From assembly GCA_965204345.1 (NCBI GenBank), contig OZ241981.1, positions 1,888,001 through 1,952,000 on the forward strand: a stretch of 64,000 nucleotides of DNA, in the 5' to 3' direction. Below, in pieces: positions 1 through 59,414 of this stretch (positions within the stretch are counted from its first letter, which is position 1; each line of letters opens with the position of its first letter). Origin of the DNA: Nitrosopumilus sp. Lineage in GTDB: Archaea > Thermoproteota > Nitrososphaeria > Nitrososphaerales > Nitrosopumilaceae. Position numbers and translations under genes: made by a program. A model generated the notes under the pieces. The model searched no databases, was not told the DNA's origin, and saw only the letters and a list, made by a program, of their open reading frames with translations.

Positions 1-680
1 TTTAGTGCCACGTTGAATTCATCGAGTCCCGGATTCTGCGTTCTTTTTTTAAACTGCCATTTCTTGGCAAGGCATGCAGATATCATCTGAAAGTATAATG
101 TGGCACAGCTGCCTTCATGCCCTAGAAACTGCTGTGCGTAGTGCTTTTGGTACGGTTTTATTTTTATGACAATTATAGATGAAGATTATATGAGGTCTTA
201 TTGTAGTGCGTAGTGCTTTTGGTACGGTTTTATTTTTATGACAGTCTCTGTGTCTGCAATAAACGATGCTGCATCGTGCAGCTTTGTTCTTAGCTGCTCT
301 TGCTTTCTGTTTTGCCTTAAGGTTGTGAGGACCTGCCTCTGCTTTGATAGTTTTTCTGATAACAGCTTTTTTGTTAGACTGAATGCAAATTTTGTATCTG
401 CATTTAGGTACTGTTGCCGCCTTATCTGAGTCTGGCGTCCAAGTGCACTTGACCAGATGCGTGCCAAGGGCTTGCCGGACCAGGATGTAATTACTAGCTG
501 TATCTGCCTTTCTATGCACAGTCTGATTGCAGACGTGCTGATCATTGCATTTGAGCTGACCAGTATCGTGTCTGTCTTTTTAGCTGGAATTTCCGCGTCC
601 TTTTGGTCCGGTGTTTTTATTACAAATCGCTCACGCCTTCTGTGTATGCTAGAGCCATGCGTGGTCAGTTCAATTATCAT
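1..680 (-). pseudogene. cas1: CRISPR-associated endonuclease Cas1, interrupted by a 72-bp insertion carrying in-frame stops; runs off the left edge
   Basis: N-terminus MIIELTTHGSSIHRRRERFVIK..ISTSAIRLCIERQIQLV..SGKPLARIW..IRRQQY is Cas1-like. After removing the insertion the same frame continues YAQQFLGHEGSCATLYFQMISACLAKKWQFKKRTQNPGLDEFNVAL, which matches the Cas1 LGxEG..YF..F.R..P..D.FN.AL signature. Confidence 0.9.
134..242. repeat. 37-bp direct repeat (134-170, 206-242) flanking a 35-bp unique spacer-like sequence (171-205)
   Basis: Two identical copies of GTGCGTAGTGCTTTTGGTACGGTTTTATTTTTATGAC with a 72-bp period; the next base (A) also matches. Confidence 0.95.
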
Positions 681-1110
681 TTGTCTTGATCTTTGAGACA
701 CTTTGATATATCTTGATCATTTAATAATTTTAGAAATGACTGCTATGTGGCGTGACAAGCTATTTAGCTGATGGACTTTTTTTTACAAAAAAAAAAGCCA
801 AAGCACAATGTGCAATCTAGCTAATCAGGTTCTTTTGAAGGAGATGAGAAATATGATATCTCAGCCAAATATATGAAATAACCATTATTCACAAAATGAT
901 TTTTGGTGGTTAATGGCACAATGATGCCATCTGACATCGTCCATACTTGTTGGGTTTGATGGCATTTTAAAATAAACCCCAAAAAATACGTATAATCTGA
1001 TGATTTTAGTCATTAAATGGATAAAAAACCGCGCGATTATTGTTAAAATGCATGATAATAGTCGGTTTTATTCAAAATATAAATAAACAATGCAATATTA
1101 ACTCAAAGCA

Positions 1111-2181
1111 ATGGCAACAAAAAGCAAGGCAACAAAAAAAGATCTAGAGACAAAAATTGCTGAATTGGAGGCAAAGTTAAGCAAATTATCAACACAACTT
1201 AAAGCCAAACCAAAACCTGCTGAAACCAAACCTGCTGAAACCAAACCTGCTGAAACCAAACCTGCTGAAACCAAACCAGGTAAAGCAAAGCCGGCAGAAG
1301 CCAAACCCGCTGAAAGACCTGCTGCTGCAACAACCAAGCCAAAGGGCACACTGCCCAAAGGATTTGAAGCAAAGCCGGCAGAAGCCAAACCGGCAGAAGC
1401 CAAACCGGCAGAAGCCAAACCCGCTGAAAGACCTGCTGCTGCAACAACCAAGCCAAAGGGCACACTACCCAAAGGATTTGAAGCAAAGCCAGCAGATGTC
1501 CCAAAGCCGGCTGAAACAACAACGTCACAGCCACCTGCAACTGTGCAAGAAGCACTAGAGAATGCATACATGACTGCCCCGACATCTGACTTTCATCAGT
1601 ACAGAGCCAAAGTCACAGGTTACTCACCAGCTCCCAACAGATACTTTGTGAGACTGACTGCTCCTGTGGGAAAGGTTCCAACCACAAATTGGAATCTCCA
1701 AAAATCTAAAGTGACCGGCTATACTGCATGCTCAAACCAGTACTATGCAACAAGGGCAAGACTTGCATATCATCCTGCCGATAAAACATTTGGAAGTTTT
1801 AGCGGGATCAACATGAGCGTTGAGGGAATCAAGGCACAGCAAGCTCCTCCGACACCAGAGCCACCAAAGCCTGCAAAGGGAAAGCTCCCAAAAGGCATGG
1901 AACAGGCACAGCAAACTCCACCACCACAGCAACAACAGCAGTCCGCATATGGCGGTGATGCAAAGTCTAGAGAAGAAAAACTCGCAGACTATGAGGCAGA
2001 ATACTTGCAAAGAATAGAACAGCAAAAAATAGATGATGAGAAGGCCTACCAAGAACTGCTTGAATCCGAAGCAAAGGCTAGGCAAACAGCTAGTAGGGGT
2101 ACTTTGCCAAAAGGCTTTGAACCAAAACCAGAACCCAAGACACCAAAAGAGTCTAGGGGAACACTGCCAAAAGGTTTCTAA
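1111..2181 (+). CDS. Pro/Lys/Ala-rich low-complexity repeat protein with N-terminal coiled coil
   Basis: 356-aa ORF with PAETK/PAEAK 15-bp repeats and a recurrent GTLPKGF motif. Confidence 0.8.
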   Translation: MATKSKATKKDLETKIAELEAKLSKLSTQLKAKPKPAETKPAETKPAETKPAETKPGKAKPAEAKPAERPAAATTKPKGTLPKGFEAKPAEAKPAEAKPAEAKPAERPAAATTKPKGTLPKGFEAKPADVPKPAETTTSQPPATVQEALENAYMTAPTSDFHQYRAKVTGYSPAPNRYFVRLTAPVGKVPTTNWNLQKSKVTGYTACSNQYYATRARLAYHPADKTFGSFSGINMSVEGIKAQQAPPTPEPPKPAKGKLPKGMEQAQQTPPPQQQQQSAYGGDAKSREEKLADYEAEYLQRIEQQKIDDEKAYQELLESEAKARQTASRGTLPKGFEPKPEPKTPKESRGTLPKGF

Positions 2182-2774: not shown

Positions 2775-3488
2775 ATGGTCAATCCAAGGGCATATCTTGC
2801 AGAGGCAATTGCAACTTATGGACTGGTGTTCTTTGGCCCTCTTTCAGTAATTTTGGCAGTATCTGCATTTGGCGAGGAACTAACCACCCAGTCAGTACTG
2901 TTTATCTCCCTTGGACACGGCGGTGCCATTGCCCTGATGGTCTATGCGTTTGGGCATGTCTCTGGCGCCCACATTAATCCTGCCGTCACCATTCCAATGA
3001 TGATTACAAGAAAAATTGGAATCGCAGACGGGGTCGGATACATTGTCTCGCAGCTAATCGGTGCTGTGGCAGCAGCTGCAACACTTATGGTCATGCTGCC
3101 TGAACTTGGCTCCAAGGTCAACTTTGCAACCCAGGGCGGTCCAAGCGACCTTATCAATAACAGCATTGGTTCTGGATTTGCAATTGAGGCGATCCTGACA
3201 TTCTTCTTAGTTACTGTAATCTTTATGACTGCCGTTCACAAAAAGGCATCTCCCGGGCTGCACGGGCTGTCTATTGGCGGGATGGTCTTCCTAATTCACC
3301 TGATTGCCGTGCCCCTGACTGGCGCCTCTGTAAATCCTGCAAGGACATTTGGTCCTGCCTTGATCTCCGGATTTTGGGAGTTCCACTGGCTGTACTGGGC
3401 AGCACCAATTTTGGGTGGGGTTATTGCAGGGCTGATAATGAATTACGTGTATACAAAACCTGCAGAAGAAGAAAAAGAAGAGGCATAA
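2775..3488 (+). CDS. MIP-family aquaporin
   Basis: Two NPA motifs (SGAHINPAVT, ASVNPART) and six hydrophobic helices. Confidence 0.95.
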   Translation: MVNPRAYLAEAIATYGLVFFGPLSVILAVSAFGEELTTQSVLFISLGHGGAIALMVYAFGHVSGAHINPAVTIPMMITRKIGIADGVGYIVSQLIGAVAAAATLMVMLPELGSKVNFATQGGPSDLINNSIGSGFAIEAILTFFLVTVIFMTAVHKKASPGLHGLSIGGMVFLIHLIAVPLTGASVNPARTFGPALISGFWEFHWLYWAAPILGGVIAGLIMNYVYTKPAEEEKEEA

Positions 3489-3528: not shown

Positions 3529-3978
3529 ATGACTTTGTCATCATCATCATCATCAACTGACATCTTTGAAATGTTTGAAAATGAGTCTCAAAAGCTCAAA
3601 GACTTGATTAGTTCTACAGATGTGAGTTCTGGGCTGAGCATCTCTGAGATTGTTGAGACCTACCATAAGGTCATCAGTGTCTCATCTATTATTTCGGTGA
3701 TAAAACAGCAGCAGCATCCCAGCTCTGAGCAGCTCTTAGAGAAAATTCAGAAAACTCAGGCAATGATATCTGAAAAATTTGACTCTTGCATGCACCCTGA
3801 AATTTTGAAGCATCTGTCTGATTCAGTCAAAAGGGCTACTTGGGACCTGCAATCTGAAAATTCTGCTGAAAAATCAGTGGAGCAAACCCGGCAAGATGCA
3901 AAATTATTTGAGGAGCTGCGAGAGATTATGAGCACCCTGGAATTTGCCAAGCAGTATGATCGTGGACTGGCCAAATGA
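3529..3978 (+). CDS. Hypothetical helical protein
   Basis: 149-aa ORF whose stop overlaps the next start (ATGA). Confidence 0.7.
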   Translation: MTLSSSSSSTDIFEMFENESQKLKDLISSTDVSSGLSISEIVETYHKVISVSSIISVIKQQQHPSSEQLLEKIQKTQAMISEKFDSCMHPEILKHLSDSVKRATWDLQSENSAEKSVEQTRQDAKLFEELREIMSTLEFAKQYDRGLAK

Positions 3979-21600: not shown

Positions 21601-24600
21601 GATGGCACCATCACTGGTGATGACCCCGTAACCTTTACGGCAACCTTTAGCGAGGATGTCCAAGACTTTGTCCTAGCTGACATTACAATAACTGGTACTG
21701 CCAACGACGGCAATCCAGTAGCAACCAACTTTGCAACAGTTGATGCCCGCACATACACCTTTGATGTTGCTCGCGGCTCTACAGACGGAACCGTATCTCC
21801 ATCCATTGCAGCAAATGTGGCAACAGACCTTGCAGGCAACTCCAACACCGCATCTGCCCCAGTTACTGTCACAATAGACACTATTGTCCCAACCGTATCC
21901 ATTACACCTGCCGATGGCACCATCACTGGTGATGACCCCGTAACCTTTACGGCAACCTTTAGCGAGGATGTCCAGAACTTTGTTCTGGCTGACATTACAG
22001 TAACGGGCACTGCCAACGGAGATGCTCCAGCAGCAACCAACTTTGCAACAGTTGATGCCCGCACATACACCTTTGATGTTGCTCGCGGCACCACAGACGG
22101 AACCGTAACTCCATCCATAGCAGTAGACGTAGCAACAGACCTTGCAGGCAACTCCAACACCGCATCTGCCCCAGTTACCGTCACAATAGACACTCTTGTT
22201 CCAACTGTCTCTGTAACTACAACTGCCAATGATCTCACCAACTCTGATACCATAACCTTTACGGCAACCTTTAACGAGGATGTCCAGAACTTTGTTCTGG
22301 CTGACATTACAGTGGCAGGCACCGCAAACGACGGCGCCCCAGCAGCAGCCAACCTTGTAACAGTTGGTGCCCGCACATACACCTTTGATGTTGCTCGCGG
22401 CTCCTCAGACGGAACCGTAACTGCATCAATAGATGCTGGTGCGCTAACAGACCTTGCAGGCAACTCCAACACCGCATCTAATTTAGTCACCGTCACAATA
22501 GACACCACTGCCCCAACAGTCTCTGTCAGTTCACCTGCTGGCAGCAGCACCGGACTTGATACGGTACCATTTATAGTAGAATTTAGAGAGGATGTTGAAG
22601 AGTTTATCCTAACTGACATTACAGTAACAGGCACTGCCAACAACGGCACCCTCACAGCAACTGACTTTGTAGCAGTTGATGCCAGCACATACACCTTTAA
22701 CGTTGCAGGCATATCCTCTGACGGAACAGTAATTATATCCATTGCAGCAGACGTGGCAGCAGACCTTGCAGGCAACCCCAACACCGCATCTGCTCCAGTT
22801 ACCGTTACCATAAACACCGATGTCCCATACGTATCCCTGAGCACAGATGCTGCTGATCCTACAAACTCTGAGGCCATCTCATTTACTGCAACCTTTAGCG
22901 AGGATGTCACAGGATTTGTACAATCTGACATCGGTGTGGAAATTGACGGAACCCCAGCAGCTAATAGCCTGATAACTGCCTTTACTGAAACCAGTGGTAT
23001 CCAATACGACTTTACAGTCGCACACGGCATCACTCTAGAAGGTCAGCTGACAGTAAGAATACCTGACAATGTAGTAGAGGGTGACAACACCGATGCTGTA
23101 CATATTATCACTGTGGACATGGTAAGGCCATCCGTAACCATCACGTCTGCTGATGGCACCACCACTGGTGATGATCCAGTAACCTTTACTGCAACCTTTA
23201 ACGAGGATGTCCAGAACTTTGAACTAGGTGACATTACAGTAGAAGGCACTGCCAACGGCGGCAGTCCCACAGCATCCAACATTGGTGGTACTGGCAGTGT
23301 CTACACCTTTAATGTGGCACGCGGCTCATCAGACGGAACCGTAATTGTATCAATAGCAGCAGACGTAGCAACAGACCTTGCAGGCAACCCCAACACCGCA
23401 TCTGCTCCAGTTACTGTCACCATCAACACTACAGGAGATGACATTGAGGATAATATCCCGCTTGGAGGTCCTGATGGCCAACCTACATACGAGCCATCCT
23501 CAAATCTGATCACCCTTAATGTAATACATGACACATTACCTGACACAATTATTGCCACTGATGGCCAACTGATTAACTTTAATGGCGCACCAACATTTGC
23601 TGATGATAGTGCAAACGGAGTAAAGAGTGTGACAATCTCTAATTCTACAACTGTTGTTACTTCTGCTGTCTCTAATTCTCAAACAGTAACTGTCACTTAT
23701 CCAGCTAATGTCGTTGTAACCGGTTCATTTGGTGATTGGACTGGCCGTATTGCCGTTCCATCACTTTCTACTGGTACTGCTACTCCTCCAACACCAAATG
23801 ATGAGATAGGACTGGCATTCTCTGTAGGTGATGACAACACTAGACTAACATTTGATCAGGCAGTCAGGTTACTATTGCCTGGACAAGCAAGCCATGATGG
23901 TGCCTTCTTCCAAGGAGAAGATGCTGATGGCGTTATAGATTCACGACCACTAGTTGTATGTCCGTTTGTTCCTGTCAATCAGGCTACTGCCAATGATAAT
24001 CTTGAAGCTGGCAGCGCACTGGAATCCTGTTTTACTCGTCCTGGCTCTGATATGATCATCTGGACCACACACTTTAGCTCATTTGGCTCATTCTCTGTAT
24101 CTGATGATCAGCCTGCTGTTACACCATCCGCATCTTCTGGCGGTAACCGCGGTGGCGGTGGCGGCGGTGGCGGCGGAGGAGGAGGAGGCAACAGCGGCCA
24201 GTCTCCTGACTCGCGCATATGTGGCCTCCAGCTTTGCAGTGAGATCAACACAGGAACGGGCTCTTCATCTGGTTCTAGCATATCTACAAACAATACTCAG
24301 ACTGGAGCAGGACAAGATCTGATGGATCCAGAACCACAGGTACCCGGTCTGAATGAGGCAGAGGAGGAGAAGAAGGAAGAAGGGCTGATAAAGATGGACC
24401 CAGAACCAGCTATGGAAACTCAGATGGACCCAGAACCAGCTATGGAAACTGATATGGACCCAGAACCAGCTATGGAAACCCAGATGGACCCAGAACCATC
24501 TATGGAAATTGAGATGGATCCAGAACCACAGGTACCAGGTTTGAATGAAAAGACAGACCCAGAACCAACAGCAGAAGCAGGAACGTCTACAATGATGGAT

Positions 24601-24780
24601 TCAGAACCACCTCAAACCGGCACAGATAAGAACAATGATCAAGAGTCAACATGCGGCCCCGGAACACAGCTGGTAGACGGAAAATGCGTGCCTGCTGATT
24701 CACAGAGCAGCTCCGAGGATCAAAAGGGCTTCTTTGCTGCAATCCAAGACTTTTTTAGCTCCCTGTTTGGATTTGCATAA
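6658..24780 (+). CDS. Giant (6040 aa) secreted surface protein/adhesin with tandem Ig-like beta-sandwich repeats
   Basis: Signal-peptide-like start (..PPAFAQ). Dozens of ~100-aa Thr/Asp/Val-rich repeats (FTATFSEDV..DITVTG..YTFDV..DLAGN.N.AS) and Cys-paired cadherin-like repeats (DPxGDTLSY). Gly-rich C-terminal linker. Confidence 0.9.
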   Translation: MIPLLVGGGTLISSAPPAFAQSISIDDVTIAEGESLSHPITLSGFGPTPDIFLSSIVGSDSSIPLSISQGGIITADISFDVVAHPSTGTDIRTNFDLSNDIQIRIGVDGSGAFRTSAFTLTVTDVNRIPAGTAPSFSLNIGETHTGNLASNIADPDGDTLSYTLTNNACQSSSVTVNPTGAFTVTATNNNAVTYPEDCSFTFEVTDGSATEQFTSSYRVLSTVSNSLPPIPASVPSATVEYPNLTVPQISLRDHFVDPEFDTLSFNNFSSCAAGVTLDVTLVNATIMQINPVASDVGTTCVVSFDISDGTTQSTGQPYSFELVITENPAPVRTATPLVIDVPADQPQTSTININDYYTDDKPLSINSVTSDDCSFRQVIVDVGIIEFTLLANDPEGVTCTVEMDVSDGNRSITATLTINHLERATASLNTDASDPTNLEAIPYTVTFGRDVTGFELDDIIVRHDDVIIRSGLITSIAGEGDEYTFTVTHSFTEGLLVVIVSQDAVVGGNDSAVSRITVDRIKPTVSIAPVDGTTTGDDPVTFTATFSEDVRNFVLGDITVSGTANDGSPVASNLLGTGSVYTFDVARGSTDGTVIASIAADVAEDLAGNLNEASAPVTATIYTVPVPTITSVRGLIDSTDPSETFRVTFSNPVTDFVADDILITGTANGGNPEISNFAGSGDTYTFDVAGGVSDGSVIISIPAGVAVHHLSGADNAASAQFDFLFLFFGPTTTISTTADPLTPLHTVPFIVTFSQDVFPLTLSDITVTGTANGGNPVASNLQILNSRTTSDGETVAPRFSFDVVRGSSDGTVTVSIPAAAATSSNFDSNIASNEITVTIDTTILPPVPAVAPVINLEHPVLDPHQEFSLDDHFTDPQGDTLSYTNISDDCTGTLTQQSPAGSDTFRFVSSAAETCTLSFDISDGTGASTGGAYTVNISVVLDAAPVRTATPLTVDVLSSQPRKVTLDINNYYTDTQTLTLVSAPTSSDCTDFVSTILSNGQFDFEPINAFASASTCTVQATFSDGNRHTTAELTINYLDAATVSLDTDVTDPTNSEAIQFTATFGSDVTGFIADDIVVTIDGNPATPGSLISAFSGSGADYAFTVTHGITAEGQLTVTIPANAVAEGNTASTVTTFTVDRIVPTVTITPADGTTTSDDPVTFTATFSEDVVNFEIGDITVTGTANATNPVASNLLGTGSVYTFDVARGTTDGTVTASIDAGVLADLAGNLNTASNSVTVTITTNTLPPVPAVTPGITLQHPVLAAHQEFSLDDHFTDPEGDTLSYTNPSDDCTGTLTQQPPAGSDTFRFVSSDAETCTLSFDISDGTIASTGSAYTVNISVVLDAAPVRTATPLTVDVPVDQPRKVTLDINNYYTDDGTLTLVSAPTSSDCTDFVSTILSNGQFDFEPINAFASASTCTVQATFSDGNRHTDTEITINYLSLPTVTVAEGESLSHQVSLPANFFPADVGLISTGHRYLSINLDGLVTGNIPFDVVTHPPTGTSIRDDFDLSTEIQVEYQLDDGADIITGSFTLTVTDVNRVPAGTVPPSFSFNIDETHTGNLATNIADPDGDTLSYTLDNNACQSSSVTVNPTGAFTVTATPNNAVTYPEDCSFTFDVTDGSATEQFTSSYRVLSTVTNLLPPIPASVPSATVEYPSITDPQISLRDHFEDPEFDTLSFNNFSSCAAGVTLDVTLLDNHNMQIAPFARDVGTTCVVSFDISDGTTQSTGQPYSFELVVTENPAPVRTATPLVIDVLSDQSRTVTIDINDYYTDDKSLSIFSTITSDDCTFRSTSPDSGVFTFEAIEDSTGGLTCTVQTTFSDGNYLTPVAFTINYLDRTSVSLTTDVGDLTNLEAIPYTVTFGRAVTGFDQDDIIVRIDETTTTPGLITSFAGEGAQYTFTVTHGLTESLLVVVIPADAADGGSASDISRITVDRANPTVSITPADGTITSDDPVTFTATFSEDVQNFILSDITVTGTANGTNPAAANFVTVDARTYTFDVARGTSDGTVTASIAADVATDLAGNLNAASAPVTVTIDTTVPSVSLDTTAADTTNSEAIEFTATFDRDVTQFVQEDIVVAINGTDTSGLISAFSGSGADYAFTVTHGIATQGELAVTIPDGVVAEGNTASTHTLTVDRIRPSVSITPADGTTTSDNSVTFTATFSEDVEDFELTDITVTGTANGGVPAAANFVTVDASTYTFDVARGSTDGTVIPSIAADIATDLAGNLNTASNSVTVTITTNTLPPVPAVTPGITLQHPVLAAHQEFSLDAHFTDPEGDTLSYTNISDDCTGTLTQQPPAGSDTFRFVSSTAETCTLSFDISDGTDASTGAAYTVNISVVLDAAPVRTATPLTVDVLSSQPRKVTLDINNYYTDDGTLTLVSAPTSSDCTDFTSTILSNGQFDFEPINAFAGASTCTVQATFSDGNRHTTAELTINYLDAATVSLDTDVTDPTNSEAIQFTATFGSDVTGFIADDIVVTIDGNPATPGSLISAFNGSGADYTFTVTHGITAEGQLTVTIPANAVVEGNTASATTTLTVDRIVPTVTITPADGTTTGDDPVTFTATFSEDVEDFELTDITVTGTANGGSPEASNLLGTGSVYTFDVARGSTDGTVIPSIAADVATDLAGNSNTASAPVTVTIDTVPLTVSVTTTVGENTNSDTVTFTATFSKDVEDFILTDITVTGTANGGSPAASNLLGTGSVYTFDVARGSTDGTVIPSIAADVATDLAGNPNTASAPVTVIIDTLAPTVSVSSSTGSSTGLDTVPFRVTFDEDVENFVLDDITVAGTANGGTLTASGFATVDARTYTFNVAGISSDGTVIASIAADVATDLAGNPNTASAPVTVTVDTTVPSVFLDTTATDPTNSDTVNFTATFDEDVTGFVQSDIVVAIDGTPAANSLITAFSGSGADYTFTVTHGIAAEGQLTVTIPDDAVVEGNTANTRTLTVDRIDPTVTITPVDGTITGDDPVTFTATFSEDVENFVLADITVTGTVNGGSPVASNLLGDGSVYTFDVARGSTDGTVTVSIAGDVARDLADNPNTASNSVTITITTLPPVPAVSPGITLQHPVLDPHQEFSLDDHFTDPNGDTLSYTNISDDCTGTLTQQPPAGSDTFRFVSSDAETCTLSFDISDGTYTSTGGAYTVNISVVLDAAPVRTATPLTVDVLSSQPRKVTLDINNYYTDTQTLTLVSAPTSSDCTDFTSTILSNGQFDFEPINAFASASTCTVQATFSDGNRHTTADLTINYLDAATVSLDTDVTDPTNSEAIPFTATFGSDVTGFIADDIVVTIDGNSATPGSLITAFSGSGADYAFTVTHGIAAEGQLAVTIPANAVVEGNTASATTTLTVDRIDPTVTITPADGTTTGDDPVTFTATFSEDVENFELADITVTGTANGGSPVASNFVTLDARTYTFDVARGTTDGTVIASIAADVATDLAGNSNTASNSVTVTVDTTVSSVSLDTTAADPTNSEAIEFTATFDRDVTQFTLEDIVVAINGTDTSGLISAFSGSGADYAFTVTHGITTQGELTVTIPANAVVEGNTASTHTLTVDRIRPSVSITPADGTTTSDNSVTFTATFSEDVEDFELADIRVTGTANGTNPVASNLLGTGNVYTFDVARGTTDGTIIPSIAADVATDLAGNLNTASNLVTVTITTNTLPPVPAVTPGITLQHPVLAAHQEFSLDAHFTDPEGDTLSYTNISDDCTGTLTQQPPAGSDTFRFASSAAETCTLSFDISDGTDASTGAAYTVNISVVLDAAPVRTATPLTVDVLSSQPRKVTLDINNYYTDTQTLTLVSAPTSSDCTDFTSTILSNGQFDFEPINAFASASTCTVQATFSDGNRHTTADLTINYLDAATVSLDTDVTDPTNSEAIPFTATFGSDVTGFIADDIVVTIDGNSATPGSLISTFSGSGADYAFTVTHGITAEGQLTVTIPTNAVVEGNTASATTTLTVDRIVPTVTITPADGTTTGDDPVTFTATFSEDVENFVLADITVAGTANGGTPTASNFVTLDARTYTFDVARGTTDGTVIASIAADVATDLAGNSNTASNSVTVTVDTTVSSVSLDTTAADPTNSEAIEFTATFDRDVTQFTLEDIVVAINGTDTSGLISAFSGSGADYAFTVTHGITTQGELTVTIPANAVVEGNTASTHTLTVDRIRPSVSITPADGTTTSDNSVTFTATFSEDVEDFELADIRVTGTANGTNPVASNLLGTGNVYTFDVARGTTDGTIIPSIAADVATDLAGNLNTASNLVTVTITTNTLPPVPAVTPGITLQHPVLAAHQEFSLDAHFTDPEGDTLSYTNISDDCTGTLTQQPPAGSDTFRFASSAAETCTLSFDISDGTDASTGAAYTVNISVVLDAAPVRTATPLTVDVLSSQPRKVTLDINNYYTDTQTLTLVSAPTSSDCTDFTSTILSNGQFDFEPINAFASASTCTVQATFSDGNRHTTADLTINYLDAATVSLSTDVTDPTNSEAIPFTATFGSDVTGFIADDIVVTIDGNSATPGSLITAFSGSGADYAFTVTHGIAAEGQLAVTIPANAVVEGNTASATTTLTVDRIDPTVTITPADGTTTGDDPVTFTATFSEDVENFELADITVTGTANGGSPEATNLNGEGSVYTFDVARGSTDGTVTPSIAANVATDLAGNSNTASAPVTVTVDTTVPSVSLDTTAADPTNSEAIEFTATFNEDVTGFIADDIVVAINGTDTSGLISAFSGSGADYAFTVTHDITTQGELTVTIPDGAVAEGNTASIHTLTVDRIDPSVTITPADGTTTSDNSVTFTATFSEDVEDFELADITVTGTANGGNPVADNFVTVDDRTYTFDVARGSSDGTVSPSIGANVATDLAGNSNTASAPVTVTIDTIVPTVSITPADGTITGDDPVTFTATFSEDVQNFVLADITITGTANDGNPAAANFVTVDDRTYTFDVARGSSDGTVTSSIAADVATDLAGNSNTASAPVTVTIDTTALTVSITPADGTITGDDPVTFTATFSEDVQDFVLADITITGTANDGNPVATNFATVDARTYTFDVARGSTDGTVSPSIAANVATDLAGNSNTASAPVTVTIDTIVPTVSITPADGTITGDDPVTFTATFSEDVQNFVLADITVTGTANGDAPAATNFATVDARTYTFDVARGTTDGTVTPSIAVDVATDLAGNSNTASAPVTVTIDTLVPTVSVTTTANDLTNSDTITFTATFNEDVQNFVLADITVAGTANDGAPAAANLVTVGARTYTFDVARGSSDGTVTASIDAGALTDLAGNSNTASNLVTVTIDTTAPTVSVSSPAGSSTGLDTVPFIVEFREDVEEFILTDITVTGTANNGTLTATDFVAVDASTYTFNVAGISSDGTVIISIAADVAADLAGNPNTASAPVTVTINTDVPYVSLSTDAADPTNSEAISFTATFSEDVTGFVQSDIGVEIDGTPAANSLITAFTETSGIQYDFTVAHGITLEGQLTVRIPDNVVEGDNTDAVHIITVDMVRPSVTITSADGTTTGDDPVTFTATFNEDVQNFELGDITVEGTANGGSPTASNIGGTGSVYTFNVARGSSDGTVIVSIAADVATDLAGNPNTASAPVTVTINTTGDDIEDNIPLGGPDGQPTYEPSSNLITLNVIHDTLPDTIIATDGQLINFNGAPTFADDSANGVKSVTISNSTTVVTSAVSNSQTVTVTYPANVVVTGSFGDWTGRIAVPSLSTGTATPPTPNDEIGLAFSVGDDNTRLTFDQAVRLLLPGQASHDGAFFQGEDADGVIDSRPLVVCPFVPVNQATANDNLEAGSALESCFTRPGSDMIIWTTHFSSFGSFSVSDDQPAVTPSASSGGNRGGGGGGGGGGGGGNSGQSPDSRICGLQLCSEINTGTGSSSGSSISTNNTQTGAGQDLMDPEPQVPGLNEAEEEKKEEGLIKMDPEPAMETQMDPEPAMETDMDPEPAMETQMDPEPSMEIEMDPEPQVPGLNEKTDPEPTAEAGTSTMMDSEPPQTGTDKNNDQESTCGPGTQLVDGKCVPADSQSSSEDQKGFFAAIQDFFSSLFGFA
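15820..20480 (+). repeat. Near-identical 1815-bp (605-aa) tandem repeat unit, about 2.5 copies, inside the giant gene
   Basis: Equivalent positions recur at 16141/17956/19771; shadow ORFs repeat with a 1815-bp offset (17499 vs 19314, 16590 vs 18405). Boundaries approximate. Confidence 0.85.
24322..24570 (+). repeat. 30-bp coding repeats (MDPEPAMET[Q/D])
   Basis: ATGGACCCAGAACCAGCTATGGAAAC recurs in tandem. Confidence 0.85.
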
Positions 24781-59300: not shown

Positions 59301-59414
59301 TCAAAACATCTTAAATCATATCTAACTGCCTTTTTCACCTTATTATGTTGAAGCAAAACCTCCCGGCTTTGATCAAAACATCTTAAATCATATCTAACTG
59401 CCTTTTTCACCTTA
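59301..59414. repeat. 42-bp direct repeat (59301-59342, 59373-59414) around 30 unique bp, period 72
   Basis: TCAAAACATCTTAAATCATATCTAACTGCCTTTTTCACCTTA occurs twice. Confidence 0.92.

Follow-up and report, generated by a model that had tools for sequence, protein, structure and literature searches.

Which process placed 72 bp of additional DNA inside a cas1 gene, and does this interruption of an integrase by what looks like its own product represent a special device of the locus? The question arises at the very start of a stretch of 64,000 nt from Nitrosopumilus sp. (C1:1888001-1952000, in the following called the window; the genome has 2.12 Mb in 9 contigs and is 99.7% complete), where the coding region of cas1 is split by an insert flanked by two copies of the same cas1 segment. 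A sequence-only reading had suggested that the Cas1-Cas2 integrase used a site in its own gene that mimics a CRISPR repeat, and thereby switched itself off, either by accident or as an evolved brake. We find that the 72 bp are very probably an off-target, full-site spacer integration by the genome's own Cas1-Cas2 (probably together with Cas4). The insertion in cas1 belongs to a chromosome-wide set of about 20 or more such insertions and is not a special device.

Anatomy and natural alleles of the cas1 insertion

The event consists of an exact 38-nt direct repeat with a period of 72 that encloses a unique stretch of 34 nt (Table 1). The sequence-only reading had divided the same 72 bp into a 37-bp duplication and a 35-bp insert. 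Its total is correct, while the boundaries have to be moved to 38/34, because a shared A extends the 37-mer; the latter occurs twice in the window when up to 3 mismatches are allowed, with 0 occurrences expected from 100 shuffles. The sum of 38 + 34 = 72 matches the units of the resident CRISPR array. The anatomy is the one already recognised as that of Cas1-Cas2 integration, in which a target segment roughly as long as a repeat is present on both sides of a spacer-sized insert.

With regard to the reading frame, the 72 bp are in frame and introduce two stops, both TAA, into the minus-strand frame (...TETVIKIKPYQKHYALQ-stop-DLI-stop-SSSIIVIKIKPYQKHYAQQFLGHEG...), as had been read before. Their in-silico removal lengthens the open frame from 154 to 337 aa, such that the Cas1 frame is restored as predicted. 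The segment before the insert aligns to positions 3-141 of the profile TIGR00287 (E 1.6e-23) and the segment after it to positions 152-297 (E 1.6e-39), i.e., the Cas1 profile runs continuously over the insertion site. The Cas1 of a relative lacks ~24 aa at this place. A search of the genome with PF01867 yields 1 match, namely this interrupted cas1 with the two TAA stops inside. The stretches LGHEG, FYHKD and DLIEP, which we take to hold the catalytic residues of Cas1, are all located downstream of the stops, and the insert thus inactivates the only cas1 of the genome, in line with the knockout inferred earlier.

Three other classes of explanation were tried and rejected. A structured RNA element or an archaeal intron is not indicated by the predicted fold of the minus strand of window positions 110-270 (-16.2 kcal/mol, z = +1.05), since an equal or better fold is reached by 169 of 200 shuffled sequences. 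A transposon, a miniature inverted-repeat transposable element (MITE) or a casposon does not fit because the inserts found in this genome are 30-38 bp long and all different, and no second Cas1-family gene is present. Slippage or tandem duplication, finally, does not fit either because the 34-mer has no further match in the genome and hence does not derive from adjacent DNA, a possibility that the sequence-only reading had raised against itself.

The stretch is found in 12 public runs from four studies (sponge metagenomes and one coded organism). We compared one run per study (X1, X2, X3, X9) with the region C1:1885001-1891800 (L002), in which the cas1 event covers positions 3134-3243. X2 provides a contig of 2,523 nt that shows one other letter and joins L002 position 3133 to 3206, i.e., exactly 72 bp are skipped with 38 ambiguous letters. 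A contig of X3 shows the same exact 72-bp skip. X2 and X3, which belong to two studies, thus carry the empty site, i.e., the intact cas1 whose existence had been envisaged.

The filled allele is seen in X9, where contigs stop at L002 3163 and resume at 3214, and where a contig of 94 nt (3142-3235) crosses the insert with a depth of 182, compared to 194-200 in the flanks. This break pattern would be explained by the fact that the 38-mer occurs twice in a graph with k=31. The contigs of X1 break at the same two places; a contig through the insert is not among the matches listed for this run. Because X1 or X9 may be the source of the genome itself, we count the filled allele as present in at least one independent study. 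With empty and filled alleles both found in public data, the cas1 insert is real, which settles the doubt about the assembly that came with the sequence-only reading.

Linked variants allow for an ordering of the alleles. X1, X2 and X3 share the variant 3581 T>C, which X9 lacks, and a 1-nt deletion at 3787 is shared by X1 and X2; the parts of L002 that X3 leaves uncovered are uninformative on alleles. The simplest order leads from empty (X3, X2) via filled (X1) to filled plus one single nucleotide polymorphism (X9 and this genome), i.e., a single integration for which no reversion is needed. None of the four runs compared shows a different spacer at the cas1 site, and among related cas1 loci in the metagenomes of the Joint Genome Institute (JGI) 0 of 203 pattern matches were confirmed by tblastn, such that no further alleles were obtained from there.

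Like insertions across the chromosome and the sources of their inserts

Screening the genome for isolated exact direct-repeat pairs of 31-42 nt with a period of 32-200 results in 25 pairs. For 23 of them the period falls between 69 and 75, and the remaining two show periods of 42 and 147. When copies are removed (three of the 23 are found in a 3.6-kb tandem unit and two pairs in larger inverted repeats), 19 distinct events are left. A looser filter (at least 27/30 matches) places 37 of 48 isolated pairs at period 69-75, 18 of them at 72, with some coding repeats included in these numbers. Measured by exact match, the duplications range from 31 to 42 nt with a mode of 38, and the inserts they enclose comprise 30-38 nt and are all different.

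As a control, we applied the search to forty 20-kb stretches (~792 kb) of the relative G007 from the same genus. Here, two isolated pairs are found, 0 of which are at period 69-75, while ~8-9 events would be expected by our arithmetic for ~792 kb at the density of the genome studied. Other pairs of G007 with periods of 66 to 75 are CRISPR arrays and multi-copy coding tandem repeats.

Species-level relatives share only ~77% DNA identity, and empty sites were therefore read from paralogues and public contigs instead. Once the insert is removed in silico, 7 events align across the site to paralogous copies in the same genome. The alignment is gapless and end-to-end for the events 162808 (438/438 nt, 94%), 1400070 (428/428 nt, 100%, several copies) and 167191 (435 nt, 90%), and end-to-end with 2-3 gap openings for 499885, 1406775 and 1947301; for 1765720, 302/435 nt are aligned across the site with 1 gap opening. 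Paralogous empty sites for the second event of the window (Table 1) are located at C1:414476-414915 (94.8%) and on contig C7.

Table 1. Features of the two insertion events in the window (columns: feature, window positions, strand, remarks)
Feature	Positions	Strand	Remarks
cas1, 5' two thirds	1-701	-	gene starts near 701 and leaves the window at its start, extending to ~C1:1887631
cas1 duplication, copy 1	134-171		minus strand encodes VIKIKPYQKHYA
cas1 insert, read as spacer	172-205		34 bp, unique; two in-frame TAA on the minus strand
cas1 duplication, copy 2	206-243		empty-site contigs (X2, X3) hold one copy only
second event, duplication copy 1	59301-59342		42 nt, exact
second event, insert	59343-59372		30 nt, unique; donor C1:1288999-1289028 (30/30)
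second event, duplication copy 2	59373-59414		42 nt, exact

The events differ in their consequences for the genes they hit. Genes encoding a subtilase, a helicase and a D12 DNA methylase carry in-frame events that leave these long genes open. An STT3-like gene, a frame of 1,014 aa and cas1 are broken, and many events sit in short-frame or repeated DNA. The repeated DNA includes units of ~3.6 kb, both tandem and inverted, at C1:1400000-1441000 and C1:2008000-2032200, most copies of which are empty; one insert is common to the copies 1400070 and 2017386, and another to the tandem copies 1406775, 1410373 and 1413971. The 30-nt coding tandem repeats (MDPEPAMETQ-like) at window positions 24364-24609 belong to an ordinary repeat protein and are unrelated to the insertions.

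Two events are found 3 nt apart directly 3' of tRNA-Ser(CGA) (C1:486267-486486, i.e., L024 568-787). The event at C1:486377 is an exact 38/34 combination, and its neighbour at 486267 is of type 36/35 with one mismatch. The exact 38/34 event duplicates the last ~23 nt of the tRNA, the gene of which is whole. Taken as a pair, the two events resemble an incipient array of two units whose 'repeats' differ from each other.

With regard to the origin of the inserts, BLAST identifies near-full-length donors elsewhere on the chromosome for 4 of 30 candidates (34/36, 30/32, 33/34 and 30/30 matching positions). Three self-derived inserts (C1:330574, 500922, 1385280) differ from their donors by 1-2 letters, while the duplications flanking them are identical. 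Given these differences, the captured DNA may stem from a closely related organism or from a paralogue since lost, and not from the resident copy. For the cas1 insert, we obtained 0 hits in 150 other genomes of the genus (up to 3 mismatches) and 0 exact matches in IMG/VR. Three other inserts also gave 0 exact matches in IMG/VR, where exact scans miss diverged sources. A BLAST search of the cas1 insert against GenBank phages returned chance-level hits only, the best with E 0.6 and none covering more than 71% of the query.

A donor from within the genome is also found inside the resident array. Its unit C1:1886549-1886660 (L002 1549-1660) is an off-register integration, i.e., the 40-bp duplication is composed of 13 nt of an older spacer (spacer 4) and the first 27 nt of the repeat, and the insert is 100% identical to C1:1209414-1209450, part of a gene that is conserved in relatives. 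Because this unit has the same geometry and lies within the array, it ties the ectopic events to the CRISPR machinery. With cas1, cas2 and cas4 all located beside the array and only one Cas1-family gene in the genome, we infer that Cas1-Cas2 is the enzyme behind the insertions.

The material collected so far also bears on an assembly or sequencing artefact, i.e., on the notion that the repeat pairs do not exist in the organism. That events other than the one in cas1 are seen in this assembly only is what such an explanation could build on. Still, its probability is negligible given that a contig with the filled allele is present in X9, that X1 breaks at the same places and that two further studies show the exact 72-bp skip. 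Moreover, the three self-derived inserts would not differ by 1-2 letters from their donors, the junctions would not carry a motif (see below), and some events would not be copied within larger repeats.

Target rules and the choice of cas1

To characterise the targets, 42 half-sites of 21 events were aligned with their right-hand sides reverse-complemented. We observe a G at 3 nt outside of the duplication in 26 of the 42 half-sites (binomial p = 1.8e-9) and a T at +2 in 23 of them (p = 0.0012); the stretch from +4 to +7 is A-rich. In its 34-nt register, the true leader-repeat junction reads gct/CTGAATAGAA (the slash marks the junction), and the two junctions of the cas1 site read gct/GTGCG and gac/TGTCATAAAAAT, respectively. 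The positions of the motif at the cas1 junctions set the length of its duplication to 38.

Apart from the junctions, we observe no likeness between targets and repeat. The cas1 38-mer agrees with the 36-nt repeat in 15/36 positions when placed in its best register, while the null distribution from random genomic 38-mers has a mean of 14.75, and the mean over 20 events is 14.7. A fraction of 0.54 of the null is at least as good, and the likeness of the ends to the repeat is weak (reached by 144 of 2000 null draws). Mimicry of the repeat as a whole is thus not supported (p = 0.54), nor is the repeat-mimicking site of the sequence-only reading. From its comparison with the resident repeat, the approximate length and a short junction motif are indeed shared, but the repeat has 34 nt (36 in the relative) instead of 37. 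Target choice would therefore need only the short junction motif and a loose ruler of ~34-39 bp.

In the course of events that we propose, the integrase would perform two staggered attacks ~38 bp apart inside cas1, joining a prespacer of 34 bp. Gap repair would then duplicate the 38 bp that flank the prespacer, and the TAA stops of the insert would switch off the only cas1. Without effectors, self-derived spacers would be free of interference cost, and the insertions themselves would mutate the genome.

Several observations weigh against this interpretation. First, for ~25 random hits the naive chance that one of them falls into 1 kb of a 2.1-Mb genome is ~1% by our arithmetic, such that selection (a neutral or favourable hit that stops the damage) or the closeness to the array has to be invoked. 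Second, the exact duplications (mode 38, range 31-42) exceed the 34-nt repeat of the array, the one in cas1 being 2-4 nt longer than the 34/36-nt repeats, and the targets lack any overall likeness to that repeat. Third, the donor match enters the duplication in 5/5 inserts with known donor, namely by 1, 1, 1, 5 and 9 nt. Fourth, no common protospacer adjacent motif (PAM) is visible beside the 5 known donors, taken without an assigned orientation; a common PAM is expected when Cas4 takes part. Finally, most inserts, including that of cas1, are without a matching source in the databases searched, and only the cas1 site was checked in public runs, i.e., the other events rest on one assembly and its paralogues.

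The donor overlaps deserve a closer look, as they hint at a contribution of microhomology that is not required by the textbook mechanism. In the second event of the window, the donor match continues 4 and 5 nt into the duplication ends, which is more microhomology than expected by chance. Either the true duplications are shorter (nearer to 34-36), or microhomology between prespacer ends and target aids the integration. A more radical alternative is a different process altogether, i.e., template switching guided by microhomology, or another integrase whose staggered cuts of ~38 bp are filled with stray DNA. It could account for the overlaps of 1-9 nt in 5/5 donors (4 + 5 nt in the second event of the window) as well as for duplications that are somewhat longer than the repeat. 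We consider it improbable, however, because template switching explains neither the fixed period of 69-75 (23/25) nor a junction motif like that of leader and repeat, the same geometry occurs inside the CRISPR array, and 0 such pairs are found in the relative as sampled.

The low naive chance of a hit in the roughly 1-kb cas1 also feeds the idea of an evolved, self-limiting brake, in which cas1 would offer a decoy site and recombination between the 38-bp copies would restore the gene as in a reversible switch. Both cas1 junctions do fit the half-site motif, and both alleles exist in nature. Exact direct repeats of 38 bp could in principle recombine, i.e., such a reversal is possible. On the other hand, the cas1 site is no nearer to the repeat than random 38-mers, and about 20 other sites are hit as well, including that in the now broken STT3-like gene. 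The four runs show no second spacer at the cas1 site, and their variants fit one integration without reversion. In a relative, Cas1 is only 45% identical and its alignment is gapped at the insertion segment, such that the site does not align. An evolved brake is thus highly improbable, and this part of the sequence-only reading is not sustained.

Returning to off-target integration by Cas1-Cas2, the hit in cas1 may have persisted since the loss of a genotoxic integrase costs nothing or even helps. Extending this to the whole chromosome, we lean slightly towards the following scenario. In this ammonia-oxidising archaeon, which lives in the wild in association with sponges, an orphan cas1-cas2-cas4 module lacking an effector would have mutated the whole genome by insertion, placing at least 20 spacers outside of CRISPR by means of a 3-7-nt junction motif and a ruler of ~34-39 bp, perhaps assisted by microhomology. 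It would have drawn on the cell's own or close-kin DNA and started a nascent array beside a tRNA gene, until the burst was ended by a spreading hit in cas1.

The CRISPR-cas island and comparison with known systems

Just upstream of the window lie, in this order, cas2, cas4, the CRISPR array, a SHOCT-domain gene, a fragment of cas6b and the gene of a 563-aa tyrosine integrase; the 3' end of cas1 is also located just outside of the window. The resident array (C1:1886280-1886667) contains six repeats of 34 nt, arranged in units of 72, 68, 70, 72 and 72 bp with spacers of 34-38 bp. At L002 1490 and 1633, precisely where repeats begin, contigs of X9 and X3 diverge from the reference into different sequence, such that the spacer content of the array varies between and within samples. 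Arrays of the same repeat family are also found in the relative G007, where the repeat measures 36 nt and the units comprise 71-77 bp (mostly 71-73).

The cas6b fragment, from which alone a subtype would have to be assigned, keeps its C-terminal domain only. A search of the genome for effectors gave 0 matches for PF01905, PF09704 and PF03787 (Cas7/DevR, Cas5 and RAMP families), and TIGR01587 (Cas3 core) returned helicases only, all below the cut-off; these are the four families covered, with Cas8, Cas10 and class 2 effectors not among them. Judged from its gene content, the locus looks like a decayed island that has kept its adaptation module without recognisable effectors among the four families searched.

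The island is flanked by two paralogues of a KPAE-repeat gene (C1:1881139-1881926 and window 1111-2181), which are 86% identical, and contains two degenerate repeats (L016, C1:1880600-1886300). A 50-bp tandem repeat (C1:1882395-1882495) adjoins the integrase gene and has a related copy at C1:1725516. The CRISPR-cas island may be an integrated mobile element.

So far, Cas1-Cas2 has been shown to integrate off target in vitro and when over-expressed. We read the present insertions as a burst of such integration that took place in nature, across the genome, and did not spare the gene of the integrase itself. Neither a natural genome carrying ectopic spacers by the dozen nor a spacer located in cas1 was found reported, in a literature coverage that is incomplete for subscription journals. 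The genome represents a natural record of many ectopic events with exact boundaries, from which the intrinsic target rules of an archaeal integrase can be read, and it also offers donors within the same genome. In addition, the population catches the integrase gene both intact and broken by what would be its own reaction. Such a record makes it possible to test what adaptation costs when interference is absent, how new arrays are born and one way in which CRISPR-Cas loci decay. If the scenario given above is true, CRISPR adaptation in nature comes at a real cost through off-target integration, and one way of losing cas1 is self-inactivation.

Among known systems, integration by Cas1-like casposases has reportedly been described for the genus Nitrosopumilus itself. 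Casposons are kilobase-sized transposons with terminal inverted repeats and short duplications. The events studied here share with them a Cas1-family integrase that makes target-site duplications; unlike casposons, they consist of 30-38 bp of unrelated sequence in a genome without a second Cas1-family gene. The CRISPR1 and CRISPR3 loci of Streptococcus thermophilus are said to show ectopic spacer acquisition within arrays, i.e., integration away from the leader-proximal repeat, to which the off-register unit of our array is comparable. While genuine internal repeats are used there, most events here are located far from any repeat. For Escherichia coli, Nivala, Shipman and Church reportedly described in 2018 'neo-CRISPR' loci that result from non-canonical Cas1-Cas2 integration.

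The type I-B system of Haloarcula hispanica is informative with regard to duplication lengths. [quoted passage not shown] This resembles the variable duplication sizes that we observe at sites without mid-repeat motifs, although the former were obtained with engineered repeats within the array and the latter at genomic off-target sites. For Sulfolobus islandicus, an accessory factor that blocks integration outside of arrays has been proposed (PMC9456107).

Close parallels are off-target integrations in Pyrococcus furiosus and E. coli. For P. furiosus Cas1-Cas2 in vitro, PMC6698737 describes full-site integration at non-CRISPR sites that share repeat features, with paired attacks one repeat length apart and a preference for G at the attack site. 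For E. coli with up-regulated Cas1-Cas2, off-target integration can start new arrays (Nivala 2018, as cited in 10.1101/148544). The latter source names 'circumstantial evidence' for new arrays by this route in two other species and considers it unclear whether new arrays commonly arise in this way. Our events agree with the cases from E. coli and P. furiosus in the spacer-sized insert, the duplication of about repeat length, the non-CRISPR sites and the base preference at the attack site. They differ in that one of them hit cas1, that only a short motif is shared with the repeat and that the spacing is looser (31-42). In contrast to these systems, the events occurred in nature and are either fixed or polymorphic in a wild population; at about 20 or more in one genome, they far outnumber the 5 spacers in the array.

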